Shown one piece after another: positions 8,553 through 28,697 of a stretch of DNA of 32,000 nucleotides (position 1 is its first letter; every line of letters starts with the position of its first letter). The stretch is from positions 1-32,000 of the forward strand of contig CP064993.1 of the NCBI GenBank assembly GCA_016699955.1. Direction: 5' to 3'. The position numbers and the translations under genes are program-made. The stretch comes from Candidatus Saccharimonadota bacterium. Its GTDB lineage: Bacteria; Patescibacteriota; Saccharimonadia; Saccharimonadales; UBA4665. The notes beneath the pieces were generated by a model that did not search any database, was not told the DNA's origin, and was given only the letters and a program-made list of their open reading frames with translations.

Positions 8553-8568
8553 TTACTAATAACGGCTA

Positions 8569-9335: not shown

Positions 9336-9493
9336 ATCAAACATCCTCCTCAGGAATAAGTCTTGGAAGCCTGCATCAAATCGCTCCAATTCTTGCCAAA
9401 AGGTGTTCCAGTTTTCCCCGAGAGGTCACCAGTATTTTAACAGATGAGATTTTAAACAATTCCGCTAGCCATATGGGAGTACATGGAACACTA

Positions 9494-9522
9494 TTGACAT
9501 AATTATATACTTTTGATATCAT
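9494..9522 (+). promoter_or_regulatory. sigma70-like promoter TTGACA-17-TATCAT for the TA operon
   Basis: TTGACA at 9494-9499 and TATCAT at 9517-9522. The ATG at 9529 lies only 6 nt downstream, which suggests a leaderless transcript. Confidence 0.5.
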
Positions 9523-9528
9523 CGTACT

Positions 9529-9816: not shown

Positions 9817-10079
9817 GGCCAGTAATTTTTCATCGTAATTTTGAAAAACACTATAAACAGCGTATAAAGCCACAGCAAAAACTGTCCGAGCAGTTCAGAG
9901 AACGCTACAAGCTCTTTCTTGCAGGTGAACGAGGCAAACCGCTCGATGACCACGCACTTAGCGGAAGCCTTCAGGGAAGACGTGCCTTTTCTATCACCGG
10001 CGATGTCAGAGTAATTTATATTGAACAGGCAGATAAAATCATTTTTCTTGATATCGGAACTCACAGTCAGGTTTATTGA
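9813..10079 (+). CDS. type II toxin, RelE/YafQ-family mRNA interferase
   Basis: HALSGSLQGRRAFSITGDVRVIYIEQADKIIFLDIGTHSQVY matches the RelE/YafQ C-terminal signature. Confidence 0.85.
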   Translation: MRPVIFHRNFEKHYKQRIKPQQKLSEQFRERYKLFLAGERGKPLDDHALSGSLQGRRAFSITGDVRVIYIEQADKIIFLDIGTHSQVY

Positions 10080-10202
10080 GAAGCATATCGGGTTATAGTC
10101 CGTCTTAAACACGGTCAGCTTTCCAAGCCAACGTTAAGTTGTTTAAGTTTTTCATCTAAAGCAAGTAAGTCATCGTAGATAAGTTTCCATCCCTGGTCAA
10201 CC

Positions 10203-10259
10203 GAGAACAACCAATAAAATTGCCTCAGCATCGCTGGGGCTATTTTATTGGTTGTTCTC
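10203..10259. repeat. long perfect hairpin (18 bp outer + 8 bp inner stem, 3-nt loop)
   Basis: gagaacaaccaataaaat (10203-10220) is the exact reverse complement of attttattggttgttctc (10242-10259). The inner stem is gcctcagc/gctggggc with one G-U pair. Confidence 0.85.
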
Positions 10260-10383
10260 AGGAGCCGGACTTCGATTGCGAACGAGCGAACGCGAGTGGC
10301 AATGGGGTTCTCTAATCCCCGTCCGCCAACGGGCGGACTAATGGGCGGATTATACCTTAGTATTCTCCGTGAGGCCACCGGAC
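10220..10383 (+). repeat. 164-bp direct repeat, copy A
   Basis: Aligns by eye to 14186-14349 with 3 substitutions and 2 single-nt indels. Contains the GC hairpin gtccgcc-aacg-ggcggac (10321-10338). Confidence 0.9.
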
Positions 10384-11574
10384 TTGTCTGGGCGGCTGTT
10401 TACCGGCTCTTGCAAGCGTTGCCAGAGTTTGGCACTTTGGGCCCTTGCTGTATGGTTCGCTGGGATACAGTCGGAGATCATGGTAGAGCTTGGCAATGTG
10501 TTCGTACCACTGCACAACATAGGACCGCTGTGCTGACGGTAGGTTAGCATTGTAGCGCAGATCTTGTCGTGCGGTACAGATGCACTCAGCAGAGCTGCTG
10601 TTGACCAGGTAACGCTGGGTTCGGTAGACACTGTAGCGATCAGTGACTCGGATACCCGCGAAGGGTTGGTCGGTGTCTTGCCAAACAATGCTTTGGCATG
10701 CGGCGCGCCACGGCTGGCGGTGAGAGTGTAACAAACCTTCGGGCTATTTGGCATCCGCTAGTATCAGGCGTAGCCACCAGCTGCTTGCTAAATGGCCATG
10801 GAGTTTCATCTGCATGGCCAGTGGGGGCTGCTCGTATGTCTGCAGTGGGCTGGGCGTAAGCCGGTAACCACGTCTGGTGTTTATGCTGGCGTATGGCGGC
10901 GATCTCACCGCCGGATACCACCAAGCTGTAGAGTGAAAGATGCAGCTGTACCACCCGTACGTAACTCATACCCACCACACTAACAAGGTGTACTACCAAC
11001 AAACGGACATTGGGGCCAAGCGTGACCGCTTGTCCGCCTAAATCTTGACCACTGGTAGCTTTGCCACACGCGAGGCAGACGCCTCGCTCAATGGTGTACT
11101 TGGTAGCCAGTTTTGCGTAGTAGTCAGGCCTTAACGCGGGTAGCGGTATATCTTCAACGAAGCGCTCATGCACGGTGATATTTACTGGGTTAAAACTACC
11201 GCCACAAGTACAGGTGGTAGGCAGTGGTACGGCCACCTCCGAAGTTATACTCTGGACCGGTGGTACAGGCCGACGGTAAGAGCTAGCCGTACGTGGCTGT
11301 TTGGCGGGGCGGTCAGACACCTTGGAGTCAATAGGCGTACCGCACGTTGGCGGACGTCGTTTTCTGCCGAATACCCTGGTCTGAAGCTCCGCGATCTGGA
11401 TGGCCTGATTCTTGTTCTGCTCAAGTGCTTGGTTGAGTAATTGGCGGAGCTCTTTGTTCTCAGCTTTCAATTCTGCGATCAGTTTGCGATCATGCGCATG
11501 CAGCTTCCGGAGGTTCCGGAGTTATACCATGCGTGCTGCAACTTCCTTGTCACTAAGTTTTTTACCGTAGGGCA
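10384..11574 (-). pseudogene. IS66-family transposase (TnpC-like), frameshifted and 3'-truncated
   Basis: Four consecutive pieces: (1) MPYGKKLSDKEVAARMV; (2) after a shift, LRKLHAHDRKLIAELKAENKELRQ (leucine zipper), a CxCG zinc-finger region and HADETPW; (3) after another shift near 10735, FAGIRVTDRYSVY; (4) a CWAH-like motif. The frame then runs into repeat copy A, and the C-terminal ~100+ aa are missing. Confidence 0.75.
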
Positions 11575-11656
11575 TCTTTTTGTTTTATATGTCCTAAGCT
11601 AAAGCCTAGCCCGAACGCCGTGATGAGGCAAGGGGTAGTGAGCGGTTACGAAGACG

Positions 11657-12711
11657 TATTAACCTCCCATACATCTTGCACACTTTCATCACCTCACTAA
11701 AGTAGAAAGGAGTGAAAGTGAGATACCGCAAGATGACAGAGAAACAATTGCTCGTGTATGGAGCACGGATTCGTTTAGGGTGGTTTCGTAAAGCCGAAGA
11801 ACTCGGGAATGTTGCGGCAGCCTGCCGGTTCTACGGCATTCCTCGACGAACATATTACTACTGGCATAGTCGCTGGGTGAGTCAGGGCAAAGCCCTGACG
11901 AGCCTGTACGATATGCCTCGTACGCCAAAGAGCCACACTAATGACGCCGATGACGAGGTAGTGAGTCTCGTCGTGCAGCTTCGCCTTGGTCTTGGTTACG
12001 GCGAAAATGCTCTTGCGCATGTCCTCAGGCGGGATTACGGCGTCGCCACATCTGTGCACGGTGTCCACAACATCCTGAGCCGAGCAAAGTTACTAGAAGA
12101 GCGCAAAAAGAAGGTACGCAAAACCCGCCAGCTCAGTGACCGTGAGTATTACCCGGGCGAAGTCGGACAGATGGATGTCAAACATTGGAAGCGCAAAGGC
12201 TACCAGTATGACATCGTCGACTGTGCTACGAGGATAAAATACAAACGGATCTATCCTGGATGCGACCCTGCGACAACGGTAGATTTTCTTGAGCATGCGG
12301 TCAGGTTCTTTGACCCAGCTTTCAGGTTCAAAGGGATTCAGACCGACAATGGCACAGAGTTCACCTACGACCATTTGCCGCAAGTGAGACCGGAAACAGA
12401 GTGCCCGACTGTCCGGTGGCTCAGAGAACATGGGATTGAGCACCTCCGCATCCCGCCGTCATCGCCACATCTCAACGGTCGAGTCGAGCGACCGCACGGA
12501 GTAGACAAGGATAGATACAAACGGCTAACAACGAATTCGCACACACTTGTCGAATTAAGAGAGTTTTGTAACGAAGATTGTCTCGACTACAACTTTTACC
12601 GACCGCATAGTATGCTAGACATGATGACACCGATTGAATACCTGCAAAGCTTGAAGGGTTACGAGCAGGCGACGGTGGATACTAGTGTGCTAGATGTTCG
12701 GTAGGTGGACC
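11657..12711 (+). mobile_element. IS481-family insertion sequence (~1055 bp) with imperfect terminal IRs and a 15-bp target-site duplication
   Basis: gcggttacgaagacg occurs at 11642-11656 and 12712-12726. With those boundaries the ends align without gaps (19/28, core ACATCTnGCACACT). Confidence 0.7.
11712..12704 (+). CDS. IS481-family DDE transposase (rve integrase core)
   Basis: N-terminal HTH (CRFYGIPRRTYYYW). DDE landmarks are MDVKHW, IQTDNGTEF and NGRVERPHG. The start could instead be GTG 11718 or ATG 11733. Confidence 0.85.
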   Translation: MKVRYRKMTEKQLLVYGARIRLGWFRKAEELGNVAAACRFYGIPRRTYYYWHSRWVSQGKALTSLYDMPRTPKSHTNDADDEVVSLVVQLRLGLGYGENALAHVLRRDYGVATSVHGVHNILSRAKLLEERKKKVRKTRQLSDREYYPGEVGQMDVKHWKRKGYQYDIVDCATRIKYKRIYPGCDPATTVDFLEHAVRFFDPAFRFKGIQTDNGTEFTYDHLPQVRPETECPTVRWLREHGIEHLRIPPSSPHLNGRVERPHGVDKDRYKRLTTNSHTLVELREFCNEDCLDYNFYRPHSMLDMMTPIEYLQSLKGYEQATVDTSVLDVR

Positions 12712-12749
12712 GCGGTTACGAAGACGGCTATTGACTATAACGTACGAAT

Positions 12750-14072
12750 GTGCTACAATACTCACTTATGATAGACCCCAACCACGAAGCTTTATCGAGT
12801 CCACAACCATGGGGCGGTACTACTGACCCTGCAGTACACGACCCGAGTAATTTCCGATATCTTGTACATGCCGTCAACCCATCCGCTCGATTGAACGCTC
12901 TGATTATAGCTTCGTATGATACGACGGCCGGCGTCACGTATGACCCTAGCTGGGGTGACCAGAAGATTAGTATGTACGACCAGCCTGAGCGTGCTGCCGA
13001 CAGAGTTTCCCTTAGTACCTCGCTCATAGACACAGAACATACCGGTACTTGGGGTGAAGCTGGACTCATACTAGAAGCTCCTGAACCTAACGTTATACTG
13101 ACTTCAGACACTGACGTCGGAGCACGCAATAACAACCTTGATGCTTTACTCAAGCAAGCTGATAATCACGGCGTTATGGATGCTGACAGTCTTTTGGCAC
13201 AAACGTACCCTTCGAGCTATAACGAGGTAGTAGTTGTTGCAAAACGTGACGAACAGCCGGTCAACGTTAAGGGTTTTTTCTACAAGGTTACACAGTCTGG
13301 GAAGCCTTACAACCCACAGCTGGCACTGCGTATGCAGTCACATGCTGAACGTCTCGGGTTACCGGTTGTGCCAATAGTAGAAAAAGGTTTGTATGCAGAC
13401 GATAAGGTCGAAGAGTGGGATGGTAAAATTGCTGTACACCACGGTGGGAACCGGGTACTTCTTACGGGTTTTGAACCACAATCGCAATTTCGTGTATATG
13501 ACGAACGACAGAGGGCTCGGTTCGCTACACCGGAAGATATTGACGGAGCACTGAGCTTCGCTACACAGACAGGTAAGCTCGAGTTAACGGAAGCACAATT
13601 AATAGCCGAAGCTTACCGAACCGCCGACAAGAAACGTCAGACGCCTGCTGTAGAGTTCGACGAGGACGGTACGGTTAAAGGTATTGCATACATTACCGGA
13701 TACGGCGATGCTGAGACAAAAGTTTCACTCGGCAAGAGGGGTCACAGCTACCGCACCAACTTAAAGCGACAATCTGAAAAAATTCAGGAAGTACTGTTAA
13801 GCATGGGAGGTCCAGGGATGATAGGTTTTGACAGTGATAATGATTACCAGCCGATATCTCCGTTTGAAGCCAGCAGCATGGTAGAGCAGGCGTGTGCAGG
13901 ACTTGACGATGAACATGCCGACCAAGTACGTCAATGGTACCAGAAGCATCGTGGCGTTACTGAACAGCAGTGGCAGCATCACCAATCATCTAGAAAGTTG
14001 CTAGGCTCATACGGTATGCAGGACTCCGATTACAATTTCGACAAGGAATATCCACGAGCTCGACAACACTAA
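12750..14072 (+). CDS. hypothetical protein (about 434-440 aa), no recognisable motif
   Basis: Long uninterrupted ORF in the GC-richer segment, starting 40-60 nt from the IS end (alternative ATG at 12768). No signal peptide or TM helix is evident. Confidence 0.6.
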   Translation: MLQYSLMIDPNHEALSSPQPWGGTTDPAVHDPSNFRYLVHAVNPSARLNALIIASYDTTAGVTYDPSWGDQKISMYDQPERAADRVSLSTSLIDTEHTGTWGEAGLILEAPEPNVILTSDTDVGARNNNLDALLKQADNHGVMDADSLLAQTYPSSYNEVVVVAKRDEQPVNVKGFFYKVTQSGKPYNPQLALRMQSHAERLGLPVVPIVEKGLYADDKVEEWDGKIAVHHGGNRVLLTGFEPQSQFRVYDERQRARFATPEDIDGALSFATQTGKLELTEAQLIAEAYRTADKKRQTPAVEFDEDGTVKGIAYITGYGDAETKVSLGKRGHSYRTNLKRQSEKIQEVLLSMGGPGMIGFDSDNDYQPISPFEASSMVEQACAGLDDEHADQVRQWYQKHRGVTEQQWQHHQSSRKLLGSYGMQDSDYNFDKEYPRARQH

Positions 14073-14349: not shown

Positions 14350-14401
14350 ATGAGACTCATCAAACTTAGATGGGTCTTTTTTGTTTGTTATGATAGTTGT
14401 A

Positions 14402-15805
14402 ATGGACAATAAAAAACATATTCAATCAGTCGAACTGGTAGCAGATAAGGTGAAGAGTTTTTACGAAAATAAAAAACCATTTCGTATATTTCATGGATCG
14501 ACAAATTCGACGAGAACTTTAACATTTAAAAGAGATGAGCTGCTAGATGTTAGCATGCTGAACTGTAATATATCTATTGATACCAAAGCCCAGACGGCCA
14601 TTGTTGAACCGAATGTGCCCATGGATAAGTTACTAGCGGCAACGCTGTATCTAGGACTACTGCCTCCGGTTATAACAGAATTTCCCGGTATAACTGTTGG
14701 TGGTGGTATTCAAGGGGGTGCAGGAGAGAGCAGCTCCTTTAAGAGAGGCTTCTTCAGTCAAAATATTAATTGGTGCGAAATGATTCTTGCGGATGGAACG
14801 GTCATAAAATCTTCTTCGGAAGAGAATAGCGATCTTTTTTATGGTTCAGCTGGATCGATGGGAACTCTGGGTGTCATTACAGCAGTAGAGATACGGTTAG
14901 TGCCGGCGAAGAAATACGTGCAGCTCACATATATACCTGTAAATAGTTTTGAATCTGCAAATCAGACAATGCTAGAGCAGTCGAACCAAGATATAGATTT
15001 TTTGGATGGTATAATGTTCGGCTCTGATTCGGGATTAATAATAATTGGCCAGCTTACTGATGGAGTGTACGGAAAGGTTCAACGTTTTAGTCGCGCCCAT
15101 GATCAATGGTTTTATTTGCATGCTGAAGTGATCAATAGCCAGGGAAAAGAATACTCGGAGACGGTGCCCTTAACTGACTACCTATTTCGTTATGACAGAG
15201 GAGCATTTTGGGTAGGTCGATTCGCATTTGAACGATTTAAAGTACCCTACAATCGGTTTACGAGATATTTGCTTAATCCAATCTTGCATACACGAAAACT
15301 TTATCAAGCATTACAAGAAAGTGGAGCATCACAAGAACACATCGTACAAGATTTATCATTGCCATACGATCAAGCTGTTCCATTTCTTCGCTATATACAT
15401 GATGAATTGAATATATACCCACTATGGCTTTGCCCCATAAAGCCTGCGCCCAAGTCACCATTTCTTTGTAACTCGCTGCCGACAAATTTAGTAATTAATG
15501 TCGGAGTATGGGGACCACGAACACCTAATTACGACCAGTTCGTGAGTGCAAATAGGTCAATAGAGCTGAAATTAGCTGAGCTACAAGGAAAAAAATGGCT
15601 TTACGCCCATACCTACTATAATGAGGCTGAATTTTGGAACATATATGACAAAAACTGGTACGACAAGTTGCGGACGAAATACCGGGCAACGACATTACCC
15701 GACATTTATACTAAAACAAAAGTACGTGAGCGGGTAGAAGTCGACGCGAAACGTGGCTTATTCAAAACTATATTCGGCAGAGCTAAACTGCGAATTGTAG
15801 ACTAA
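14402..15805 (+). CDS. FAD-binding oxidoreductase, DHCR24/DIMINUTO/DWF1-like (delta24-sterol-reductase family)
   Basis: VEPNVPM..ITVGGGIQGGAGESSSFKRGFF..ILADGTV..ENSDLFYGSAGSMGTLGVITAVEIRLVPAKKYVQL, IVQDLSLP..IYPLWLCPI and a C-terminal ..YNEAEFWNIYDKNWYDKLRTKY all parallel the human DHCR24 sequence as I recall it. No N-terminal TM anchor. Alternative starts at 14381 and 14390. Confidence 0.85.
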   Translation: MDNKKHIQSVELVADKVKSFYENKKPFRIFHGSTNSTRTLTFKRDELLDVSMLNCNISIDTKAQTAIVEPNVPMDKLLAATLYLGLLPPVITEFPGITVGGGIQGGAGESSSFKRGFFSQNINWCEMILADGTVIKSSSEENSDLFYGSAGSMGTLGVITAVEIRLVPAKKYVQLTYIPVNSFESANQTMLEQSNQDIDFLDGIMFGSDSGLIIIGQLTDGVYGKVQRFSRAHDQWFYLHAEVINSQGKEYSETVPLTDYLFRYDRGAFWVGRFAFERFKVPYNRFTRYLLNPILHTRKLYQALQESGASQEHIVQDLSLPYDQAVPFLRYIHDELNIYPLWLCPIKPAPKSPFLCNSLPTNLVINVGVWGPRTPNYDQFVSANRSIELKLAELQGKKWLYAHTYYNEAEFWNIYDKNWYDKLRTKYRATTLPDIYTKTKVRERVEVDAKRGLFKTIFGRAKLRIVD

Positions 15806-15825
15806 CCACACGCCGGCACAGTCAA

Positions 15826-16020
15826 CTAACATGGAACAAACGTAAACCGTAAGAAAGTTAACGGGTCATGGAATAGCTCTGGTTGGTTTGTTCTAGCCAT
15901 CCATTCACGGCAGAGATCTTCTAGCTGATGGGTCAGGATCCTTTGCCCATAGAGTTTTCGCATGTGGGGCTTAGCAACACTCCAGATGCGCTCGGCACTG
16001 TTAGTGTTGGCATAAGCTAG
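15826..16020 (-). pseudogene. C-terminal remnant of a DDE transposase (IS1595-like?)
   Basis: Minus-strand frame reads LAYANTNSAERIWSVAKPHMRKLYGQRILTHQLEDLCREWMARTNQ, resembling the hTNtiEgfWs.lKr...G.yh..s.khL..Yl.Ef.fR.N tail. It has no start and is bounded by a stop. Confidence 0.35.
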
Positions 16021-16111
16021 TCATGAGTTTTCTGACAGTTTGGTGACAAACCAGTTGCATCCACCGTGTTTTTGAGAGGATTACTGTCAGATAATCTGTT
16101 AAAATCATGGC

Positions 16112-16762
16112 ATGAATGTAAACCGCCAAGCTAAAGTAGTGCTGTGTTACGGCGACAGTAATACTTGGGGTCAGAATGACGATAATAATTTCGCTAGTAG
16201 GTATGCCAGTAATGTTAGGTGGACTGGTAAGCTCCAAGAACTGCTTGGTGACGGGTACTACATTATAGAAGAGGGCTTGGGTGGCAGAACAACCAATCTA
16301 GATCGTTACAACCCTGCTAAGCAGTCACAAAACGGTTTATCCTATTTCAAGTCATGTATTATCAGTCACTCTCCTTTGGACATGGTTGTCATTATGCTTG
16401 GTACTAATGACCTGAAATCACGGTACGAACGTCCTGCCCGTGAGATTGCTGACACGCTGAAATTGTTTGTCGATGAAGTTTACGCTAACAATTCGAATGC
16501 TGTAATTCTGTTGGTGGCACCTATATTTGTTGACGACACAGCACCTAAGTTTACTGAGTATTATGCCGGCACATACGATAAGGTATCCGCCGAAAAATCT
16601 AGACAGCTTGGTAATGAAATCAAGCGACTAGCCGACGAAACGAATTCATTGTTCTTCGACGCAGCCACGGTTTCTAAGCCTGGCAAAGATGGCATCCATT
16701 TAGACGAACAATCACACTCACTATTGGCACAATCACTAGCTGAGATCATAAAGAATGAGTAG
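16112..16762 (+). CDS. SGNH/GDSL-family hydrolase (esterase/lipase-like)
   Basis: Block I CYGDSNTWG, block II GLGGRTT, block III MLGTNDL, block V DGIHLD. Confidence 0.9.
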   Translation: MNVNRQAKVVLCYGDSNTWGQNDDNNFASRYASNVRWTGKLQELLGDGYYIIEEGLGGRTTNLDRYNPAKQSQNGLSYFKSCIISHSPLDMVVIMLGTNDLKSRYERPAREIADTLKLFVDEVYANNSNAVILLVAPIFVDDTAPKFTEYYAGTYDKVSAEKSRQLGNEIKRLADETNSLFFDAATVSKPGKDGIHLDEQSHSLLAQSLAEIIKNE

Positions 16763-17705
16763 CTGGTGGCAATTAGGAGAGGAAAGTGGCCAGTTTGGTA
16801 CTAATCGGGCACTTTATCAATCAGACCACCTCCGTGGTATAACCGCAGCATTAATATCGGCTGTTGCTAGCGCTGCATATATAGTTATAAACAAATATGT
16901 GTACCTACACTATGCGGTTAAACCAGCGCAGTACGTACCAATTTTTATGATTGCAACGGGCTTTTATGGCCTTCTTAACGTAGTTTTTCACATATGGAAA
17001 CAACGTGGCACTCACCAGAAGTACAAAAAGGGTCCATCCCTATTCGTCTACGCTGTCATCATTTCAGCTGGGCTTGGGCTAGTAGTTGTAGGTCAATATT
17101 TCACGAGCGCCGTTAACTCTAGCATTATTTTCCCGGCGATTATTGTTTGGACAGCGATTTTCTCGTGGGTGCTTCTAAGAGAGCGTTTCACTCGCTCTCA
17201 AATCATATGGTGTGTCGTCTTGTTCGTGGGTCTTTACATAGCGATTGTCGGTTTTCGTAGCTTGACGTTACATATTGGTGACCTAATCGTACTCGTCGGA
17301 ACTGCTTTCGTTGGCTTTTCTAATGCCTACTCGCGACCATTGATAGCCCGCGTTGGATCTGTGGTCGCCACAAACGCACGCGTTATCGTTGGTGCATTGA
17401 TGGCAATACTAATTGCATTGTTTACACTACGAGATGTAAGTATTAATAGTGGAGTTGTAATTTGGGCATTGGCAGCCGGTTTTTGTCTATACATCGGCGC
17501 GAGATCTTTTGCCCTGGCTACTCATTTAATCGATGCTAACCATACCTCCGTAATCAACAACATGCAGATAATCTTTGTGGGTGTTCTAAGTGTTTCTGTA
17601 CTTGGGGAAGACTATTCAGTTGAAAAACTAATCGGTTCTCTCATTGTTCTAACTAGCATCATTTTCATTGCACACGCCCGAAGCCGGAAAACTGCTACCA
17701 AGTAG
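16755..17705 (+). CDS. EamA/DMT-superfamily transporter
   Basis: About 10 predicted TM helices in two halves, a length typical for the family, and an 8-nt overlap with the upstream gene. Confidence 0.75.
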   Translation: MSSWWQLGEESGQFGTNRALYQSDHLRGITAALISAVASAAYIVINKYVYLHYAVKPAQYVPIFMIATGFYGLLNVVFHIWKQRGTHQKYKKGPSLFVYAVIISAGLGLVVVGQYFTSAVNSSIIFPAIIVWTAIFSWVLLRERFTRSQIIWCVVLFVGLYIAIVGFRSLTLHIGDLIVLVGTAFVGFSNAYSRPLIARVGSVVATNARVIVGALMAILIALFTLRDVSINSGVVIWALAAGFCLYIGARSFALATHLIDANHTSVINNMQIIFVGVLSVSVLGEDYSVEKLIGSLIVLTSIIFIAHARSRKTATK

Positions 17706-19959: not shown

Positions 19960-21114
19960 CTAACTTTCTCGGGAAAGTTTGCGGCTCAAGAACAACCGAT
20001 AGCCCACAGCGCTCAGGACACTTACGAATCCAAACAGTCCTATGACACTACCGGCACCCGTGTCAGGAAGAACCTGTGGTGTTGTAGGTGTGGTTGGGGT
20101 AGTCGGAGTAGTTGGGGTTGTAAATGTTACTGATTTTACGCAGTCTGCGTTATCTGCTGCGTACTTATCTTCGCCGTTGACATCGAACAGAAGCTTTACG
20201 CTCACACTAAACGTTCCGTCAGTTCCGTAGGTATGGGTCAAAGTAGTTTTGTCTGTTTCAAATGGTATGACATTTTGGCTACCATCACCCCATACGAGCG
20301 TCGTGTTTTTGTACGTCGCACCGTCTTTGGCAGTGTACTTAACTACCGCATTAACCGTACGATTTTCGTTGTTTGGTGTCAGTTTTAGGTCGTCACAGCT
20401 GTAGACTGGTATCACTACTGGGGGAGTTTTTACGGTGACAGTTGCATCATCGCAATCATCTTGGTCTTGACCTGGCTGATTAGGTACTTCTGTAGCATTG
20501 ACGCAAGCCGTGTTGTTTAGCGTGCCTTCAGTGTACTTAGTAACTTTTGCTGTCAAAGTGAAGCTCATGCTTTCACCTATTTTTAGGCTGGGGATGACGT
20601 AGTTCCAGGTGTTGCTGGTAATTGTTCCGACACCATTGGCGCTGACGAGTTGAATATTGGTATTTGAGGCAGGCGTATCGGTAACGGCGACGTTCTTCAA
20701 GTCTACTTCACCGTCGTTGGTAACTTTGATCTGGTAATTGTAGTTCTTTCCAACTTCAACTTCTACTGTTTCTTTACCTTCAACCTTTTTGTCTATCTTG
20801 ACGCTTGGCGTCTTTTGGACTGGAGGAGGTGTAAAGGTAACTGTCTTACTACAAGCAACGTTCGCTGCAGGAGCTTTGTCTGTACCGTTGACCGTAAACA
20901 ACATGTTTGCTTGTACAGTGTAAGTGCCAGCGGCGGCATAGGTGTGATTACCGGTTGTACCTGTTATGACATTTTGGCTACCATCACCCCATACGAGCGT
21001 CGTGTTTTTGTACGTCGCACCGTCTTTGGCAGTGTACTTAACTACCGCATTAACCGTACGATTTTCGTTGTTTGGTGTCAGTTTTAGGTCGTCACAGCTG
21101 TAGACTGGTATCAC
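19960..21114 (-). CDS. C-terminal fragment of a sortase-anchored PKD/DUF11 surface protein (LPDTG signal)
   Basis: Begins inside a repeat unit with no signal peptide. Ends with a (PTT)n linker, LPDTGAG, a TM helix and RKLSRES. Confidence 0.8.
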   Translation of the reverse strand: MIPVYSCDDLKLTPNNENRTVNAVVKYTAKDGATYKNTTLVWGDGSQNVITGTTGNHTYAAAGTYTVQANMLFTVNGTDKAPAANVACSKTVTFTPPPVQKTPSVKIDKKVEGKETVEVEVGKNYNYQIKVTNDGEVDLKNVAVTDTPASNTNIQLVSANGVGTITSNTWNYVIPSLKIGESMSFTLTAKVTKYTEGTLNNTACVNATEVPNQPGQDQDDCDDATVTVKTPPVVIPVYSCDDLKLTPNNENRTVNAVVKYTAKDGATYKNTTLVWGDGSQNVIPFETDKTTLTHTYGTDGTFSVSVKLLFDVNGEDKYAADNADCVKSVTFTTPTTPTTPTTPTTPQVLPDTGAGSVIGLFGFVSVLSAVGYRLFLSRKLSRES

Positions 21115-21789
21115 TACTGGGGAGTTTTTACGGTGACAGTTGCATCATCGCAATCATCTTGGTCTTGACCTGACTGATTAGGTACTTCTGTAGCATTGAC
21201 GCAAGCCGTGTTGTTTAGCGTGCCTTCAGTGTACTTAGTAACTTTTGCTGTCAAAGTGAAGCTCATGCTTTCACCTATTTTTAGGCTGGGGATGACGTAG
21301 TTCCAGGTGTTGCTGGTAATTGTTCCGACACCATTGGCGCTGACGAGTTGAATATTGGTATTTGAGGCAGGCGTATCGGTAACGGCGACGTTCTTCAAGT
21401 CTACTTCACCGTCGTTGGTAACTTTGATCTGGTAATTGTAGTTCTTTCCAACTTCAACTTCTACTGTTTCTTTACCTTCAACCTTTTTGTCTATCTTGAC
21501 GCTTGGCGTCTTTTGGACTGGAGGAGGTGTAAAGGTAACTGTCTTACTACAAGCAACGTTCGCTGCAGGAGCTTTGTCTGTACCGTTGACCGTAAACAAC
21601 ATGTTTGCTTGTACAGTGTAAGTGCCAGCGGCGGCATAGGTGTGATTACCGGTTGTACCTGTTATGACATTTTGGCTACCATCACCCCATACGAGCGTCG
21701 TGTTTTTGTACGTCGCACCGTCTTTGGCAGTGTACTTAACTACCGCATTAACCGTACGATTTTCGTTGTTTGGTGTCAGTTTTAGGTCG
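20266..21789 (-). repeat. tandem duplication, 2.18 copies of a 699-bp (233-codon) PKD+DUF11 unit
   Basis: The ORF track shows identical 90-aa shadow ORFs at 20815..21087 and 21513..21785 (offset 698). The protein segments are identical except P/S (NQPGQ vs NQSGQ). One copy junction has G4 (21119-21122) instead of G5 (20420-20424). Confidence 0.9.
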
Positions 21790-22340
21790 TCACATGTCAG
21801 TACCGGAACAACAACCGTGTTCTGTGCTTTTACGGGATTACCACATGACTTAATGACTGCTCCAACAAAACGTCCTTGAGCATCAAGCCACACAAAGGCA
21901 GATATTTGGGTGCTTGCAAAACTTACACTCGGTGGTCTCTGATAAAAGGTTTTGCCTCCAGCTTGGATGGTTGTACTACCCGGCATGTATTGTCGACCGA
22001 CAGTTACAGCATTATTTGCCACAACCTTGCCGTCAACGAGAACTTTGCCGTCCTTTGTAACGTACCCCGATTTGGCACTTGCTGCGCCGTTAACCATACT
22101 ACTTGTGATGCCGAAATAGTCATACAGCGACGGAATGTCGCCGGTATACTTAGCTTTCAGTGTTGCGGCATCGTAAGCACCACAATACATGACGGCATTA
22201 GCATCACAGTCAGCCGCACTTGAGCTTCGAGAATCAACGTACAAATTAGTTGCACTATATAATACAGCCATAAATAAGACGACAGCAGATACTGTAAGTA
22301 CCTTCTTAAATCGTTTCCCAGTGCCCTTGAAATTGAACAT
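21114..22340 (-). CDS. N-terminal fragment of the same surface protein (signal peptide, conserved N-domain, PKD + DUF11)
   Basis: Signal/TM LTVSAVVLFMAVLYSA and an N-domain paralogous to the 626-aa protein. Terminates at ..TVKTPQ* where the sister repeat reads ..TVKTPPVVIPVYSCDD. RBS is aagggaga. Confidence 0.8.
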   Translation of the reverse strand: MFNFKGTGKRFKKVLTVSAVVLFMAVLYSATNLYVDSRSSSAADCDANAVMYCGAYDAATLKAKYTGDIPSLYDYFGITSSMVNGAASAKSGYVTKDGKVLVDGKVVANNAVTVGRQYMPGSTTIQAGGKTFYQRPPSVSFASTQISAFVWLDAQGRFVGAVIKSCGNPVKAQNTVVVPVLTCDDLKLTPNNENRTVNAVVKYTAKDGATYKNTTLVWGDGSQNVITGTTGNHTYAAAGTYTVQANMLFTVNGTDKAPAANVACSKTVTFTPPPVQKTPSVKIDKKVEGKETVEVEVGKNYNYQIKVTNDGEVDLKNVAVTDTPASNTNIQLVSANGVGTITSNTWNYVIPSLKIGESMSFTLTAKVTKYTEGTLNNTACVNATEVPNQSGQDQDDCDDATVTVKTPQ

Positions 22341-22769: not shown

Positions 22770-24929
22770 TCAAATACTGCTTGGTTTGCTAAAGCGGAAG
22801 CCAAAGGTGCTGCCTTTGCCTTCTTGGCTCTCAAAAATTACACTGCCACCCTGAGCAACAATCACTTTTTTGGCCATGTACAAGCCCAGCCCTGTGCCGT
22901 CCGGCCTCATACGGCGAGCATTATCTGCCCGATAAAACTTGGTGAAAAGGTGCCTATGTTGCTCCCGCGGAACGCCTATGCCATTGTCTTTTATTCGCAG
23001 CTCAACAGCTGTGAGCGTCTCGATCAAGGCAACCTCTATGTGGCCCTTTTCGGGCGTGTAATATATAGCATTGTCTAAAAAGTTCATCACCACCTGATGC
23101 ATCTTGCCCTCGTCCAGCGGCAGCAGTACGAATGTCTTTGGCGCAGAATAAGTAATATGTACATTTTTTGCTTTGGCAGTTTCATTCAGCTGCTCAACTT
23201 CTTGGTCAACGACTACACGCAGGTCAGTTGGCGCAGCGTCTATGACAAACTTACCGGTGTTTAGGCGGGACAGGTTCAATAAGTCGGCGATAAGGTTCAC
23301 CATCCGTTGACTGCTCATGAACGACTGTTTGAGTAACTGCTCCTGCTGTGGCTTCAGTGGGCCCGCATCGCCCTCCAGCACCATACTAAGGTAACCCTTG
23401 ATGCTTGTCAGCGGCGTCCGCAACTGGTGAGATGCCATAGATATAAACTCATCCTTGGTCTCATCTAGTTTCTTGAGTCGCTCATTGGCTGCGCTATACT
23501 TCCGTGTCTGCTCCTCAACCCGTGCCTGAAGCGTTTTGTTAAATTCCTGAATTTCCTCAAAATGCAATGCGTTTTGGATGGCAATCACGAGGGTATTGGC
23601 AGCCGCACTCATAACCTGGATGTCTTGCTGGTCATACGGCTTTCCACTCTTACGTGAGCCAAAAAGAATATACCCCAAAAGATCCTGTTTAGTACGCCCT
23701 ACCGCCACCAACCTCGCCGCCGCCGCAATGTCATAAGACCCATGGCTTTCATTGCTAAGATAAAAACCTTCGGGAATTGTCGCGACAATAACATTGTCTT
23801 GTTTATGCTCAAAAGCCCGCCTGATCATGTTGGCATCAATATTTGTATTGTCACCTGATGATCTATTGACCAAATGCATCTTACCACTCTCAAGATCTTT
23901 GAGAACAAAATCACATTGTTCTGGCTTGAGTGCTTTACTGAGTACCTCTGCACTTGAGTCAAGTAAATCCCTCAAGTTGATTTTCGAAACTAGTGTTTTA
24001 TTTAGTTCGCTCAATATCAATGCCGGATCATAAGAATCTCGAAAGAAAATCCGGTTGGAGATTCTGTTAAACCATAGCATCAAGCGAGAATAATTTGTCG
24101 CACCGATTGTACCAATGGCCACGGCAAAAATAAATTGCCACCAGGAAAAGTTGATGTCAAGAATAACCACCATAACAAAAATAAGTGGGGCTACATATAG
24201 AATTGCTAGTACTAACATAGTCAAAGAGTAAGCGGCTGCGCGCACGGCAAATGCACGAATATCAAAAAGATTATGGCGCACCATTGCATAGCCGACCATG
24301 ATAACAAAAAAAGCAGAATAAACAGGCGTTAAAGCAATGAATCTCAAGTCACCCTCAGCGGCTGGTAAATACATACTTGTTATCGGGGCTAGAAAAAGTA
24401 CAGGTAAAAAACCGATGAGAAGGTATAGCGACTGTGCTCGTATATGAGGTTTGTGATTACGCCTGAAGCCATCACTTAATTCCCGGGTGATTAGATAAAC
24501 AAAATAACCCACCAGGACACCGTATAGGCTCATCCCCCAACCAAATCTTAAAATCTGCCGCGGCCCTTCGTTGATGAAGCCGCCAATCACAAACGGCGTC
24601 AGGCTGAACACTACGGCAATAATACCTATTCCAATTCTAAGCGGCTGCAGATTATTTTTTTCAGGGATTTTGACCAAACCCACGATCAAGAAGTACGTAC
24701 TCATTATCGCTGTTGCAGTACATGCCATAACAAGGCGCGCATATACAATCTTTTGCTCTCCTTCGGCACCCGTCGAAAGAAAGTTGAACAAACCTAGCAA
24801 AACGTAAGCAAGAGAAGTAAACAGATATACTTTATCTGTTTTTTGTCGAGAATTTTTCACCCATACCACCAAGCCGGTCAACACACTCAATAATATACTA
24901 ATCACAGCAATTATTAAGGCGGCACTCAT
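22770..24929 (-). CDS. sensor histidine kinase with a multi-pass membrane N-terminal domain
   Basis: About 290 aa of consecutive TM helices, a central sensor-like domain, the HisKA H-box SHQLRTPLTSIKGY, and HATPase_c N/G boxes (NFLDNAIYYT, DNGIGV, GTGLGL). Confidence 0.9.
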   Translation of the reverse strand: MSAALIIAVISILLSVLTGLVVWVKNSRQKTDKVYLFTSLAYVLLGLFNFLSTGAEGEQKIVYARLVMACTATAIMSTYFLIVGLVKIPEKNNLQPLRIGIGIIAVVFSLTPFVIGGFINEGPRQILRFGWGMSLYGVLVGYFVYLITRELSDGFRRNHKPHIRAQSLYLLIGFLPVLFLAPITSMYLPAAEGDLRFIALTPVYSAFFVIMVGYAMVRHNLFDIRAFAVRAAAYSLTMLVLAILYVAPLIFVMVVILDINFSWWQFIFAVAIGTIGATNYSRLMLWFNRISNRIFFRDSYDPALILSELNKTLVSKINLRDLLDSSAEVLSKALKPEQCDFVLKDLESGKMHLVNRSSGDNTNIDANMIRRAFEHKQDNVIVATIPEGFYLSNESHGSYDIAAAARLVAVGRTKQDLLGYILFGSRKSGKPYDQQDIQVMSAAANTLVIAIQNALHFEEIQEFNKTLQARVEEQTRKYSAANERLKKLDETKDEFISMASHQLRTPLTSIKGYLSMVLEGDAGPLKPQQEQLLKQSFMSSQRMVNLIADLLNLSRLNTGKFVIDAAPTDLRVVVDQEVEQLNETAKAKNVHITYSAPKTFVLLPLDEGKMHQVVMNFLDNAIYYTPEKGHIEVALIETLTAVELRIKDNGIGVPREQHRHLFTKFYRADNARRMRPDGTGLGLYMAKKVIVAQGGSVIFESQEGKGSTFGFRFSKPSSI

Positions 24930-25005
24930 TGGTTTTAGTATAACTGAATAGTCATTAAAGCATAGGCTGAATTGTATTTATCAGCTCAAATACATCTTGA
25001 GTAAG

Positions 25006-26247
25006 CTAACCGTTTGACTGATTAGCACGCCTCCTAGACTCCGCGTAAGACTTTACTGCCAGTGCAGTTCTTATCCAGGTTAATAAGTTATGCTCTGGAC
25101 CCAGATTAAAAGTATCACGGGGGTTGTCGTAATATCTGCCCGTTGGCAAGTCGTGCCCAAGAAGAATCTCTGCTGCTGCAAACTCAACGTCGGCACCACC
25201 CCTTGTAGCTGTCGCGCCTTTTTGAGGCATCCCTCCTAAGTGTGCGTCGCGGCTCATAACCGATTGCATCATGCGAACGGATAGGTTTGTAGCACCGGTA
25301 TGCGCCAACATCAAACTTTCTTTTTCAGCTTCAGAAATAGGGAATTCGCTTATACGGATTGTGTCGGCGCGCGATATTCTTCCCATGAACGGTAATTTAC
25401 GTTTCTTATCACGTAAATCGTGACGCTCCACGTCTATCATTGATTTGTCATGCAAGTCAGCGGGCATAATCAAAGGTATTCTTCTGCGCTCTGCAAAAAG
25501 CCTTAATAAGGCTTTAGCAGACATATCATCGACTGCCTCGACAATAATATCGACGCCTGCTTTGAGGAGCACTCTCTCGTCCCCCGCGTGGAATCCATCC
25601 GGCAAGTGAGTCTGTTTAATCCATGGATCAACCTCACTAATATGACGAGCGAGGATAGCTACCTTACTTGCACCGACATCTCGAACCGTTCCGTCAATAC
25701 GATTCAAGTTTGAGCTATCTAGCGTGTCACCGTCACCGATAACATAATGATTTCCTATACCCGATTGGACCATACTCCTGGCAGCCTTGCTGCCAACACT
25801 AAGCCCGATACAAGCAATCGTTTTTTCACGAAGTGTTCGCTGTTGATCGCGCGTCCGTAGATCTCTGTCACGATAATTTCTCACCCCCCTGTGGTCCTCT
25901 TCGTCCAAATATAAAACTATTTCCCCAGACCAAGGGAAGAAAACATACGACCCAAACGTTTGTCCTTGCTCTATGACACTCTGATGAAACTCACGCCGCA
26001 TATCTTGGTTTTTTTTGTCTGCAGGGTATAGATAAGTAAACAAATCATTTGCTAGCGGTTCTGTTTGGGCTCGAAAACCAGTGACTTTCCCAGCACGCAA
26101 CAGCGCCTCAAAGCGGATCTCTTCAACTGGAGAATCCAGTTTGAATATCTGTGGAGGCTGCCAATCATCTGGATCTTTTCTGACCGTATCCAGATGCCGA
26201 AATGCCTCACATAAATTGCTTGCTTCGAACGCAGGACTGCTGCTCAT
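25006..26247 (-). CDS. ThiF/E1-like adenylyltransferase, MoeY/Rv1355c-like N-terminal architecture (no nitroreductase domain)
   Basis: YVFFPWSGEIV..NYRDRDL..IACIGLSVGSKAARSMVQSGIG..VIGDGDTLDSSNLNRI (Rossmann fold plus the NLNR motif) and DVERHD. These match my recollection of Rv1355c-family proteins. Confidence 0.7.
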   Translation of the reverse strand: MSSSPAFEASNLCEAFRHLDTVRKDPDDWQPPQIFKLDSPVEEIRFEALLRAGKVTGFRAQTEPLANDLFTYLYPADKKNQDMRREFHQSVIEQGQTFGSYVFFPWSGEIVLYLDEEDHRGVRNYRDRDLRTRDQQRTLREKTIACIGLSVGSKAARSMVQSGIGNHYVIGDGDTLDSSNLNRIDGTVRDVGASKVAILARHISEVDPWIKQTHLPDGFHAGDERVLLKAGVDIIVEAVDDMSAKALLRLFAERRRIPLIMPADLHDKSMIDVERHDLRDKKRKLPFMGRISRADTIRISEFPISEAEKESLMLAHTGATNLSVRMMQSVMSRDAHLGGMPQKGATATRGGADVEFAAAEILLGHDLPTGRYYDNPRDTFNLGPEHNLLTWIRTALAVKSYAESRRRANQSNG

Positions 26248-27170
26248 GAACTTAATTCTCGGGATCGTGATGATAGTAACATAGACCCAAATAGTGCTCT
26301 GGCTGCCACCTGCTCTTCTGAAAGATGACCTGCCGGTAATGAATCACTAAAGAACAGGAAGCCACCAATATAACGTTGTCTTGTTTTTACATCGGGGGCA
26401 GTACTTACGGCAGCCAACAAGTTTGATACAAAAGCATCAGGTCGAATGAGCACTGGCAATAATGTTGTTTGTCGTCGATACGGGTTCTCTTCCAGCACAA
26501 CCGGAGTACCGATTACTTCAAGATTATTTGGTGAAAGCTGTGGAGTCAACGCATCATGTGCTTCTTTAACCATGCTGCAATACAGTAGCATTTCTTTTCC
26601 GACCGTATAACCTAAAACTTTTCTAATCACTTCAGCTACGCCTGTAGTCTGGCGGTCTTTGGATGCATTTTTGTCTTTCTCATGCGCAGCTCTCGACTTT
26701 GCTAAAGCACCCATCTCCATCAAAGGCTTACCGGATTGAATATGCTTACGCATAACTAACAGTTGTTCTGGTGGCAAGCCACTTTTTATCAAACCGAACG
26801 TTGGCATTTTCTTAGGGTCTGCGACGTCGACTAGCCGCGCGCCAGCCGTATCGAATGAATCCGTCAAACTGCGAGCAGCAAAATGTATTATGCCAGTCTT
26901 AAGATGCCCAGATTTATCAATGTGTGGTAACAGAAAATTATCGGGAGATTCGGCAGCTGGCTTAGCAAGCCCCGTCTCAAGATAGCCCTCGAACATCGTT
27001 CTTCTTGCCAGATCGATTACTGGTTTGCTCCCGCGCTCTGCCGGTCTTGCCATCCAGTGAGCATACATATCAGGAAAAAATAAATTGCCCTGGCGCCCTT
27101 CTAGCTGCAAACTAATACCGAGTGCATTCCCTGGCGTATCCCCTGATGTATTTGGATCCTTTAACTTCAT
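26244..27170 (-). CDS. uncharacterised protein (308 aa), translationally coupled to the ThiF-like gene
   Basis: ATGA overlap with the downstream gene and a single Cys. It has a weak resemblance to LuxI/FeeM-type GNAT-fold acyltransferases (..MEMGALAK.., ..LEVIGTPVV..), which is unverified. Confidence 0.5.
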   Translation of the reverse strand: MKLKDPNTSGDTPGNALGISLQLEGRQGNLFFPDMYAHWMARPAERGSKPVIDLARRTMFEGYLETGLAKPAAESPDNFLLPHIDKSGHLKTGIIHFAARSLTDSFDTAGARLVDVADPKKMPTFGLIKSGLPPEQLLVMRKHIQSGKPLMEMGALAKSRAAHEKDKNASKDRQTTGVAEVIRKVLGYTVGKEMLLYCSMVKEAHDALTPQLSPNNLEVIGTPVVLEENPYRRQTTLLPVLIRPDAFVSNLLAAVSTAPDVKTRQRYIGGFLFFSDSLPAGHLSEEQVAARALFGSMLLSSRSRELSS

Positions 27171-27498
27171 TATGTTATTATTAATAGCATACTTTTAGTA
27201 CTTTGTCTATTAGTTTGTGTGGCTATAAACAAACCAATACCTCCGCTGTTCGGATTAAAAAACCACATTCGGCGCCACTACAGCACCTCCGTGATATGTC
27301 TAAAAAGTACCTTACTAGCCAAATGTTTAATATTTGAGACGGGGACAGGGGAGATACAAAGTTACCCAGTGGCTATCCTGATGAGCTAGGCTTCCTTAGC
27401 CTACAGTTTGGTTTTGTACTGCCATAAGCCAAGTTACATAACGGCGTAGAATCAGGGGTTATGTTTCGAGCTTGAAGGGAATGTTGTATACTACGCTT

Positions 27499-27867
27499 AT
27501 GACGAGAATAGCCATCATAGAAGACGATCAGGCTATTAGTATGATGTACCGGATAAAGTTTGAGGCCGAAGGTTTCACTGTTGAAACAGCAGCCAACGGT
27601 AGACTCGGACTAGAGCTGGCTGAAAAGATGAAGCCAGACATCATCCTTCTCGACCTCATGATGCCCGAGATGAATGGCGAAGAAATGCTCACAAAACTAC
27701 GCAAAACAAGCTGGGGTAAGGACATCAAAGTCGTGATACTGACCAACTCTGGTGAGGAGCAAGCACCTCCCGAACTAAAAGCGCTTGGCATTTGCCGCTA
27801 CATTGTCAAAGCAGAAATGACCCCCCGTCAGGTTGCCGAAATGGTCAAAACCGTCCTCGCCGCCTAA
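27499..27867 (+). CDS. single-domain CheY-like response regulator (receiver only)
   Basis: RIAIIEDD, DIILLDLMMPEMNG and VVILTN..K are the receiver D-D-D-T-K landmarks. There is no output domain. The ORF is open from 27472, and ATG 27499 gives the canonical short N-terminus. Confidence 0.85.
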   Translation: MTRIAIIEDDQAISMMYRIKFEAEGFTVETAANGRLGLELAEKMKPDIILLDLMMPEMNGEEMLTKLRKTSWGKDIKVVILTNSGEEQAPPELKALGICRYIVKAEMTPRQVAEMVKTVLAA

Positions 27868-27881: not shown

Positions 27882-27972
27882 ATGTGAAAGGTTAGACCTC
27901 GCACATAAAAATCTCAATGGTCTAAGATGTGCATGTGTGCAAAAAGTATGTGCGAGGTCTAACCTTTCACAT
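27882..27972. repeat. REPIN-like doublet: two 26-bp REP arms in inverted orientation with a 39-nt spacer
   Basis: atgtgaaaggttagacctcgcacata (27882-27907) is the exact reverse complement of 27947-27972. Confidence 0.9.
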
Positions 27973-28605
27973 TTCGTCACGGGTGACATCGTTTGCGAGT
28001 TGCCACTTTAGATCCTCAAGCTCACGCTGCTGATCCACATATTCTGCTACGAACGACAGATACTCCTGCCTATCTCCAAACAGGTCGAGTACCCTGTCAC
28101 TACGAAGCCACTTTGGTTCCTCACCCTTGGCGTAATACTTGTAGCTCGAGTACGGCCAGACAGCGTATGCGTCTGGATTTAGATGAATATAGCGCGAAAT
28201 ATGGTACAAATATGCATCACTGGTTATTCGCGAGGCTTTATATGGCCCCTGAAAAAGCGATCCGACGCGATTATATTTTTCATTAAAGTACATCACATAA
28301 CCTGTACTCACGCGGCGCATAAGTTTTTCTACGCCGCTTTCGGTCATTTGATACACAAGCAAATGAAAATGATTCGGCATCAGGCAGTATGCTAAAAGCG
28401 CAACTTCACTTTCAAGCGAAGGAAAACGGTGTCTATTATTTTTATTGGCATCCCGCCTGTCGTTGGCAAGATATTTTTTTAGTAACCCCAGGAAAACGGT
28501 GTAATCTTGGTCGTCAGAAAAAATAATTCTTTTTTCAACGCCCCTATTATATACATGATAGTACGCTCCCGTCTCAAACTCTCGCACAACATTTCTACTA
28601 GGCAT
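27967..28605 (-). CDS. REP-associated tyrosine transposase (RAYT; IS200/IS605-like HUH Y1 transposase)
   Basis: YHVYNRG, HUH motif MPNHFHLLV, and the catalytic-Tyr region YLYHISRYIHLNP. The likely start is MPSRNVV at 28605, because the listed 28641 start runs through a REP arm. Both CDS ends abut REP arms. Confidence 0.85.
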   Translation of the reverse strand: MPSRNVVREFETGAYYHVYNRGVEKRIIFSDDQDYTVFLGLLKKYLANDRRDANKNNRHRFPSLESEVALLAYCLMPNHFHLLVYQMTESGVEKLMRRVSTGYVMYFNEKYNRVGSLFQGPYKASRITSDAYLYHISRYIHLNPDAYAVWPYSSYKYYAKGEEPKWLRSDRVLDLFGDRQEYLSFVAEYVDQQRELEDLKWQLANDVTRDEM

Positions 28606-28697
28606 ATGTGAAAGGTTAGACCTCGCACATACATTTTGCAAGCATGAACATCTTAGAACATTGGGGATATTTATGTGCGAGGTCTAACCTTTCACAT
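28606..28697. repeat. REPIN-like doublet, inverted copy of 27882-27972
   Basis: The same 26-bp arms occur at 28606-28631 and 28672-28697. The 40-nt spacer resembles the reverse complement of the other doublet's spacer (acATTTTGCAagCATGaACATCTTAGAaCATTG.. vs acTTTTTGCAcaCATGcACATCTTAGAcCATTG..). Confidence 0.9.

Follow-up and report, generated by a model that had tools for sequence, protein, structure and literature searches.

We describe here two overlapping genes at positions 25,006 to 27,170 of a 32,000-nucleotide stretch from a Candidatus Saccharimonadota bacterium (contig CP064993.1, positions 1 to 32,000; this whole stretch is referred to below as the window). They encode a 413-residue ThiF-type protein and a 308-residue partner, precede a co-oriented gene for a membrane-bound sensor kinase, and are transcribed divergently from a gene for a receiver-only regulator. 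Along the window, the features of the locus are the following.

22770..24929, minus strand: sensor histidine kinase of 719 residues, with a multi-pass membrane sensor, probably of the seven-transmembrane-helix (7TM) type, a GAF-like region, HisKA and HATPase_c
24930..25005, minus strand: spacer of 76 nt from the ThiF gene to the kinase gene, probably inside one transcript
25006..26247, minus strand: ThiF gene, 413 residues, matching PF00899 and NF005901; predicted ATP-dependent cyclase with no flavin-dependent oxidase (FDO) domain
26244..27170, minus strand: partner gene, 308 residues, from an open reading frame (ORF) call; predicted N-acyl amino acid synthase-like acyltransferase of FeeM/LuxI-type GNAT fold
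27171..27471, no strand: divergent intergenic region from the partner to the receiver gene, presumably holding both promoters
27472..27867, plus strand: receiver-only CheY-like regulator, ORF of 131 residues, likely start ATG at 27499; PF00072, E=8.8e-22

An earlier reading of this DNA, made from its letters alone (hereafter the sequence-only reading), had described this arrangement, and its account holds in each respect: the TGA stop of the partner gene overlaps the ATG of the ThiF gene at 26244-26247 (sequence tcATGAgc), the co-oriented kinase gene follows after 76 nt, in which no terminator-like site was found, and the divergent orphan receiver, placed by that reading from 27499, carries no output domain in Pfam. 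Conservation of the pair in ~30 loci, down to roughly 20-35% amino acid identity, indicates that both are genuine genes rather than chance ORFs.

The ThiF protein and its partner

The ThiF protein matches PF00899 (E=2.7e-16) and, as its top NCBIfam model, the equivalog NF005901, 'Rv1355c family' (E=1.4e-54, 185.6 bits), with the runner-up NCBIfam ThiF models at ~1e-15. Because the match spans only positions 42-334 of the 722 in the model, its score falls short of the curated cut-off of 476 bits, and the nitroreductase half of the model is absent, exactly as the sequence-only reading had it when it called an E1/ThiF core of Rv1355c-like type without that half. Genes annotated as 'Rv1355c family protein' on Mycolicibacterium and Rhodococcus plasmids are 33% identical to the ThiF protein over residues 82-371 (tblastn), and a MAFFT alignment places it on residues ~45-327 of the 708-aa Rv1355c-family proteins, with the GLSVG, DxD, LSNLNR, K and IDVER motifs aligned. 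Among 14 homologs of 31-57% identity, GLSVG, D172, D174, N180, N182, R183, K195 and D240 are invariant, so that the ATP-binding residues on which the earlier assignment depended are retained, and the same alignment contains neither an invariant Cys nor a CxxC zinc motif. Since the ATP motifs are invariant and no such Cys or CxxC is present, the pattern describes a predicted adenylating enzyme that would act without thioester formation.

In December 2025, Rv1355c itself was identified as TrzS, in which a ThiF-like ATP-dependent cyclase and an FDO are joined in one protein; with the acyl-CoA:tryptophan N-acyltransferase TrzA (Rv1356c), whose gene lies just upstream, TrzS yields N-acyl tryptazolones (PMC12856293). 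TrzAS is described from Mycobacterium tuberculosis, M. smegmatis and Rhodococcus jostii (PMC12856293). The D217A substitution in TrzS abolishes cyclisation, and the mutagenic primer used encodes VEECDSLD (PMC12856293). In our alignment the region VEAV-D240-DMSAKALLR of the window protein matches VEEC-D-SLDIKALVR of the Rv1355c family, and D240 is, on this comparison, the equivalent of the catalytic Asp D217. An AlphaFold2 model of the ThiF protein (predicted local distance difference test, pLDDT, 83) returned AclA (9egb), ThiF, MoeB, MccB, PaaA and TcdA as top Foldseek matches in the PDB; by sequence, the solved structure nearest to its Rossmann core is TcdA (E=7e-19). The best structural match, 9egb, is a 2025 entry entitled 'AclA in complex with substrate' from Tenacibaculum discolor, for which no describing paper was found in a literature search; its substrate could bear on the role of the window's ThiF clade.

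The partner, which the sequence-only reading could match to nothing it could name beyond a weak impression of a LuxI/FeeM-like GNAT fold, indeed has no match at E<=1 in Pfam, NCBIfam or PADLOC, PF21926 (FeeM) and PF00765 (Autoind_synth) included. A word-indexed search of 5.8 billion proteins returned five members of its family only and another such search 13 proteins; none carried an informative name, and a cluster look-up returned just 'hypothetical protein'. An exhaustive HMMER search with a profile of the five members recovered 143 representative clusters, 98 of them below 1e-10, and defines an uncurated N-acyltransferase-like family that is unannotated in current databases. PF21926 is the sole Pfam family matched by more than one member (3 of 105, best E=0.012), and when PDB sequences were searched with the profile of the 105-member family, only noise (E ~1) came up; Pfam, NCBIfam, PADLOC and this profile search thus place the partner in no well-known unrelated family. 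Its AlphaFold2 model (pLDDT 73, predicted template modelling score 0.75) shows a three-layer alpha/beta/alpha GNAT fold to which FeeM and the acyl-homoserine lactone (AHL) synthases are closest: among generic GNATs, Foldseek lists FeeM (2g0b, E=3e-5), EsaI (5.5e-4) and then LasI (5.9e-3) in the PDB, with a probability of ~1.0 and template modelling (TM) scores normalised to the target of 0.41-0.55, which gives the earlier impression substance. The conserved R...Y, D, R and E of the partner may follow the order of the residues conserved in the LuxI family. The partner is thus a predicted N-acyl amino acid synthase-like acyltransferase of an uncurated family.

Conservation of the cassette and its neighbours

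The partner and ThiF genes are found as a pair in Saccharibacteria and a few Actinomycetes. ThiF is adjacent to the partner gene in 28 of 28 partner-containing loci, including those of kinase-less Actinomycetes and one further locus, L006, and the neighbourhood comparison suggested by the sequence-only reading therefore comes out in favour of the pair, with ThiF beside every partner gene and fusions in both orders. About 12 representative clusters are partner-ThiF fusions of 640-713 aa, in which the partner is either N-terminal (P0021, P0027, P0065, P0079, P0093, P0099 and P0110) or C-terminal (P0144 and P0151); two Saccharibacteria genomes (L022, L024) carry partner-ThiF fusions, and P0119 is a methyltransferase-partner fusion. 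The gene order is partner-ThiF in most loci and reversed in L034-L036, and L011 has two tandem partner paralogs. Among 22 reference-genome loci reached through ThiF, 17 hold the partner or a fusion, one (L025) a weakly FeeM-like gene, and four (L026-L029) a different cassette described below. This coupling pattern fits a small-molecule pathway in which an acyl group would be joined to an amino acid and the product cyclised and exported; an exported small molecule is consistent with the MFS transporter encoded between the partner and ThiF genes in two loci from Actinomycetes metagenome-assembled genomes (MAGs; L012, L017). That the cassette is kept across an order of ultra-small Saccharibacteria genomes implies an important function.

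The Actinomycetes ThiF proteins (L012, L014, L017, L021 and L025, including that of Nocardioides malaquae) are 38-41% identical to the window ThiF, and most Saccharibacteria copies from the same scan, at 33-40%, are no closer. Because the Actinomycetes identities are as high as those of many Saccharibacteria copies, and because Actinomycetes are the usual hosts of Saccharibacteria, these sequences suggest horizontal gene exchange between the epibiont and its host. Separately, a plasmid of Kitasatospora sp. NBC_00070 (L032, 4233-7117) encodes a 616-aa 'ThiF family adenylyltransferase' in which a weakly GNAT-like N-terminal region of 266 aa is fused to this ThiF type; the fusion gene overlaps a gene for beta-ketoacyl-acyl carrier protein synthase III, a LuxR-type regulator gene lies nearby, and the locus is probably a further uncharacterised N-acyl amino acid/oxazolone-type cluster.

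The search for an FDO drew on four queries, the standalone nitroreductases of L026 and L027 and the FDO half from each of two Rv1355c-family proteins; it used phmmer, a hidden Markov model (HMM) and tblastn, and covered the 32-kb window and ~6 kb on each side of the pair in relatives. No FDO was found in the window or in any of the ~28 partner+ThiF loci, and the same queries recover the FDOs of L026-L029 at 1e-12 to 1e-21. The natural partner-ThiF fusions never include an FDO and leave no room for one. Taken together, the lack of an FDO in every partner+ThiF locus and in the fusions indicates that this clade is stably built without an FDO and that no local deletion is involved. A FAD_binding_4 oxidase encoded at 14381-15805 is of an unrelated family, with a weak likeness to DprE1 or lactone oxidases, and is more than 7 kb away. 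It opens a plus-strand group at 14381-17705 that continues with a GDSL lipase/acylhydrolase and an overlapping EamA-family transporter; in principle the lipase might provide acyl groups and the exporter might carry a product out of the cell, but they are not kept beside the cassette in relatives.

The kinase matches HisKA, HATPase_c and, weakly, GAF in Pfam, with ~7-8 hydrophobic helices in residues 1-260, and in all kinase orthologs the sensor region comprises ~7-9 membrane helices with short loops. PF16927 (HisKA_7TM) gave no match at E<=1 in the window kinase; the L004 ortholog has a weak precomputed match to it. Receiver orthologs occur in every Saccharibacteria locus, at times as two tandem copies, and the block of one or more receivers divergent from the partner and ThiF genes, followed by the kinase, recurs in 23 of the 23 distinct Saccharibacteria loci with both genes. 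The gap between ThiF and kinase genes is 31-84 nt in 17 of the 20 Saccharibacteria loci measured and stays short down to ~33% ThiF identity, and the kinase is still directly downstream where the pair is swapped (L034-L036) or fused. On these gene positions the cassette is probably co-transcribed with the 7TM-type kinase.

A separate cassette occurs in Paceibacterota and Saccharibacteria MAGs (L026-L029, for example L027:2706-11831). Its genes encode, in order, an aromatic amino acid lyase (PF00221, 1e-158), a PaaK-like ligase (TIGR02155, ~1e-12), a ThiF protein, an FDO, a HisKA_7TM kinase, a receiver, and a fusion of a receiver with a T2SSE/PilB-type ATPase, and it holds Rv1355c in split form, the ThiF protein corresponding to model positions 12-341 (1e-96) and the separate FDO to positions 375-712 (7e-42). 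The Saccharibacteria sensor-region profile matches the sensors of these kinases at E ~1e-30, and the L027 kinase, the one of the four scanned against Pfam, matches PF16927 with 35.7 bits (cut-off 28.6). The receiver fused to a PilB-type pilus ATPase in the Paceibacterota cassette is a putative relay part; the cluster is apparently undescribed so far and may link an aryl-acyl oxazolone-type product to the control of type IV pili.

Directly downstream of the window kinase lie two ORFs for PKD/DUF11 surface proteins of 408 and 384 aa (19960-22340, minus strand), the second beginning at the stop codon of the first. They contain a tandem module of ~698 nt in three copies, with repeats at 20263-20720, 20962-21418 and 21660-21827 and one 300-nt stretch 100% identical between copies; the repetition may have arisen by recent duplication, may mark a phase-variable or split gene, or may be an artefact of assembly; CLIPPER/PKD surface-protein genes similar to those of the window flank the kinase in many relatives. 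On the other side of the locus, the receiver gene is separated from murD by an IS200-like ORF (Y1_Tnp, E=8e-9) at 27967-28641 on the minus strand. In this neighbourhood, relatives that carry the murI-murD insert possess two receivers in tandem, of which only the murD-proximal one has its ortholog in the window. At a greater distance, positions 1900-13000 form a mobile/defence-like island of shifted GC (0.41 to 0.52), several ORFs of which have no Pfam match and which includes the following genes.

1902-2978: serine resolvase
4032-5261: STAND/AAA NTPase
8775-9389: Mrr-type restriction endonuclease
11712-12704: rve integrase

Proposed function and competing explanations

In our judgement the pair is probably an oxazolone-synthetase-type cassette of the OxzAB, TyzACB and TrzAS kind that lacks the desaturase, and is probably co-transcribed with a 7TM-type kinase that may sense the product or couple its production to a phosphorelay. 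Logic related to that of TrzAS underlies TyzACB (Rv2336-Rv2338c; PMC10404671), OxzAB from Pseudoalteromonas rubra (bioRxiv 10.1101/2020.06.11.147165) and NasY/ThiF/nitroreductase clusters of Planctomycetota (PMC12479983). Following this logic, the partner would N-acylate an amino acid, as suggested by its fold and genomic context; the ThiF protein, by homology to the TrzS cyclase domain, would use ATP to adenylate the N-acyl amino acid's carboxylate; and attack of the amide oxygen on the adenylate would close a 5(4H)-oxazolone ring. Because no FDO is fused or adjacent, the end point would be saturated, namely an N-acyl oxazolone that is electrophilic and hydrolytically labile, or what forms from it by hydrolysis or transfer, and not a compound of the conjugated tyrazolone or tryptazolone type. 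A saturated N-acyl oxazolone or N-acyl amino acid is thus the likely product, and possibly a signal. Release of a free saturated product has precedent, since the cyclised non-oxidised intermediate accumulates with the R540A oxidase variant of TrzS or under O2 limitation (PMC12856293). From a pathway conserved without the oxidase, one would predict a compound of different chemistry and higher reactivity. The sequence-only reading had proposed a small molecule or a modified peptide; TrzS and TrzA (PMC12856293) make the former by far the better reading, and the latter is unlikely, with no conserved small ORF and, in most relatives, no space for one. In the final step, the weakest and a purely conjectural one, the probably co-transcribed 7TM-type kinase would sense the hydrophobic product or otherwise couple its production to the phosphorelay.

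Several points weigh against this interpretation. The fold match of the partner has modest TM-scores (0.54 normalised to the target) and comes from a model of medium confidence. Alignment of its profile by hhalign with the weakly FeeM-like protein of L025, which is encoded in the partner's position upstream of a related ThiF gene, gave no better than E=0.0026 at a probability of 11.6%, with the motifs in the register expected, and alignment with the GNAT-like N-terminal region of the Kitasatospora protein gave no signal. The partner HMM finds nothing, even at E<=10, in three plasmid loci with Rv1355c-family genes (L031-L033), and in L031 and L033 these genes have no recognisable TrzA-like neighbour; the partner is likened to TrzA, TyzA and OxzA by position, orientation and predicted fold. 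Saccharibacteria are not known to synthesise fatty acids, so that the question of the acyl donor arises. The FDO search in the host genome spans 32 kb of 1.2 Mb, with an unlinked FDO possible elsewhere. Finally, the wider FolD-(MurI-MurD)-response regulator-pair-histidine kinase stretch is syntenic across Saccharibacteria genomes, and the kinase linkage in this group therefore counts as about one evolutionary event.

This synteny, perhaps a single ancestral event, bears most directly on the strongest competing explanation, which we regard as possible and clearly less probable than a coupled kinase: the cassette would be the same, with a two-component system that answers another cue or is an inherited neighbour, and with a product serving as an envelope lipid, antimicrobial or host-interaction molecule. 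Actinomycetes and L006 hold the pair without any kinase, and the published oxazolone clusters come without a dedicated receptor and showed no phenotype when the compounds were added. Set against this, the short ThiF-kinase spacers persist in divergent loci, the kinase is retained when the pair is swapped or fused, the same sensor family stands beside the different ThiF-cyclase cassette of L026-L029, and a sensor wholly embedded in the membrane would suit a hydrophobic ligand. The operon-type link to a membrane sensor kinase family that is also found beside split Rv1355c in Paceibacterota makes the signalling hypothesis concretely testable now.

Beyond coupling between the oxazolone-type cassette and its kinase, a more specific proposal, which we put forward only tentatively and consider doubtful, is that the operon forms a self-contained signal synthase-receptor module, in which a labile oxazolone or its hydrolysis product would be sensed by the 7TM kinase and relayed to the CheY-like receiver. 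N-acyl oxazolones were discovered between 2021 and 2025, and the authors call their physiological role unresolved and 'signal' a hypothesis. If true, such a module would for the first time assign oxazolones a physiological role, as signals between cells or between epibiont and host, and no dedicated system of the autoinducer type would have been described before it in the Candidate Phyla Radiation (CPR).

Two further explanations concern the chemistry of the cassette. The pathway could be a complete, ordinary one whose FDO is encoded elsewhere and which, like TyzACB, ends in a conjugated N-acyl oxazolone or dehydro-amino acid, a reading we hold to be unlikely: the oxidase of TyzACB is a separate protein and its step order is not obligate, and the examined DNA is 32 kb of a 1.2-Mb contig, but FDOs were readily detected beside the other ThiF type and not within ~6 kb of the pair, the published systems carry the FDO fused or directly adjacent, and the natural partner-ThiF fusions are devoid of it. 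Somewhat more improbable still, the ThiF protein could activate an N-acyl amino acid to an adenylate or oxazolone and hand it on to a different nucleophile, for instance an amine of a protein, lipid or cell-wall precursor; the pair would in that case act as a racemising activation system or as an ATP-dependent acyl-aminoacyl ligase rather than produce a free heterocycle. Saturated 5(4H)-oxazolones acylate other molecules well and are prone to racemisation. The TrzS products readily hydrolyse and alcoholyse, acid and methanol each being destructive to oxazolones (PMC12856293), and ThiF-like enzymes generally pass their adenylate to varied nucleophiles (review PMC12596934). Against a transfer role stand the lack of a candidate acceptor-specific enzyme conserved beside the pair and the fact that TrzS, the closest characterised homolog, cyclises.

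The intergenic leader bears on a third possibility, a system for ribosomally synthesised and post-translationally modified peptides in which a short peptide would have its C-terminus modified by the ThiF protein, in the manner of MccB and PaaA, and would be acylated or protected by the GNAT-like partner. MccB and PaaA are among the structural matches of the ThiF model, and an N-terminal extension precedes the Rossmann core of the ThiF protein. However, residues 76-130 of this extension are common to the Rv1355c model, TrzS has a small-molecule substrate, and similarity to Rv1355c (1e-54) is far above that to MccB or PaaA (~1e-6). At ~300 nt the window leader is the longest of all loci, and the sequence-only reading had suggested looking for a conserved short precursor ORF in 27171-27470 and nearby; only unconserved small ORFs are present in it, and we found there no Rfam family, no excess folding energy (z=-0.99) and no remnant of a lost second receiver gene. 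In relatives, the gap between receiver and partner genes is 3-192 nt and that between ThiF and kinase genes only 31-84 nt, in most of them too little for a precursor gene, with no conserved small ORF. The precursor-peptide idea was rejected on these grounds, and a peptide-modifying system appears very unlikely. Least credible is the sequence-only reading's alternative of non-canonical E1-type conjugation, with activation of a ubiquitin-like protein and the partner as transfer factor: PADLOC E1-E2 (Cap2-like) models match the Rossmann core at up to E=2.9e-16, but these matches are confined to residues ~126-280, the ThiF family has no catalytic Cys, no locus contains a gene for a ubiquitin-like protein, E2 or JAB, and the partner has a GNAT and not an E2 fold, all of which speaks against membership of such systems (Cap2, Bil and 6A-MBL included).

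Comparison with known systems

TrzAS is the closest counterpart. There the N-acyltransferase gene, and in the window the gene for the putative acyltransferase, lies immediately upstream of, and co-oriented with, the gene for a ThiF cyclase. By sequence the window ThiF is a member of the Rv1355c family, with the catalytic Asp and every ATP motif retained, and the TrzAS locus of M. tuberculosis is likewise flanked by signalling genes, in that case for cyclic di-GMP turnover. Unlike TrzS, a cyclase-FDO fusion of ~710-720 aa, the window ThiF is without an FDO domain, and the window system further differs from TrzAS in its Saccharibacteria (CPR) host, the 7TM-type kinase in its probable operon, its expected saturated rather than conjugated product, and a partner family not recognisably similar in sequence to anything curated. 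With TyzACB, OxzAB and the NasY clusters the window pair would share the logic of an N-acyl amino acid synthase and a ThiF cyclase, and methyltransferase associations recur (the P0119 fusion, L012); all the published clusters have a nitroreductase or FDO, whereas the window cassette has none linked. Structurally, TyzA comes closest to FeeM and an AHL synthase, and the top match of the window partner is likewise FeeM.

FeeM, EsaI and LasI, the best structural matches of the partner model, are GNAT-fold synthases of N-acyl amino acids or AHLs; unlike these FeeM/LuxI-type proteins, to which it has no significant sequence match, the partner is ~100 residues longer and has a C-terminal helical extension. 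For the cyclase, TcdA, which converts tRNA t6A to ct6A, offers a ThiF-type, ATP-dependent, dehydrative ring closure without any oxidase, and hence a precedent for an FDO-less cyclase, although it uses a tRNA nucleoside, has no acyltransferase partner and lacks counterparts of the window protein's N- and C-terminal regions.

At the level of the operon, the arrangement recalls LuxM/LuxN and CqsA/CqsS of Vibrio, in which an autoinducer synthase gene lies beside the gene of a transmembrane-bundle kinase receptor and the signal is a small, hydrophobic, acyl-derived molecule. The window synthase and sensor are not homologous to these proteins, so that the analogy is one of workings, with the signal and receptor roles putative. 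Overall, the system is not categorically new, being probably of the known kind that combines an N-acyl amino acid synthase with a ThiF cyclase; what is new is that it has no linked oxidase, is found in the CPR and is linked to a kinase.

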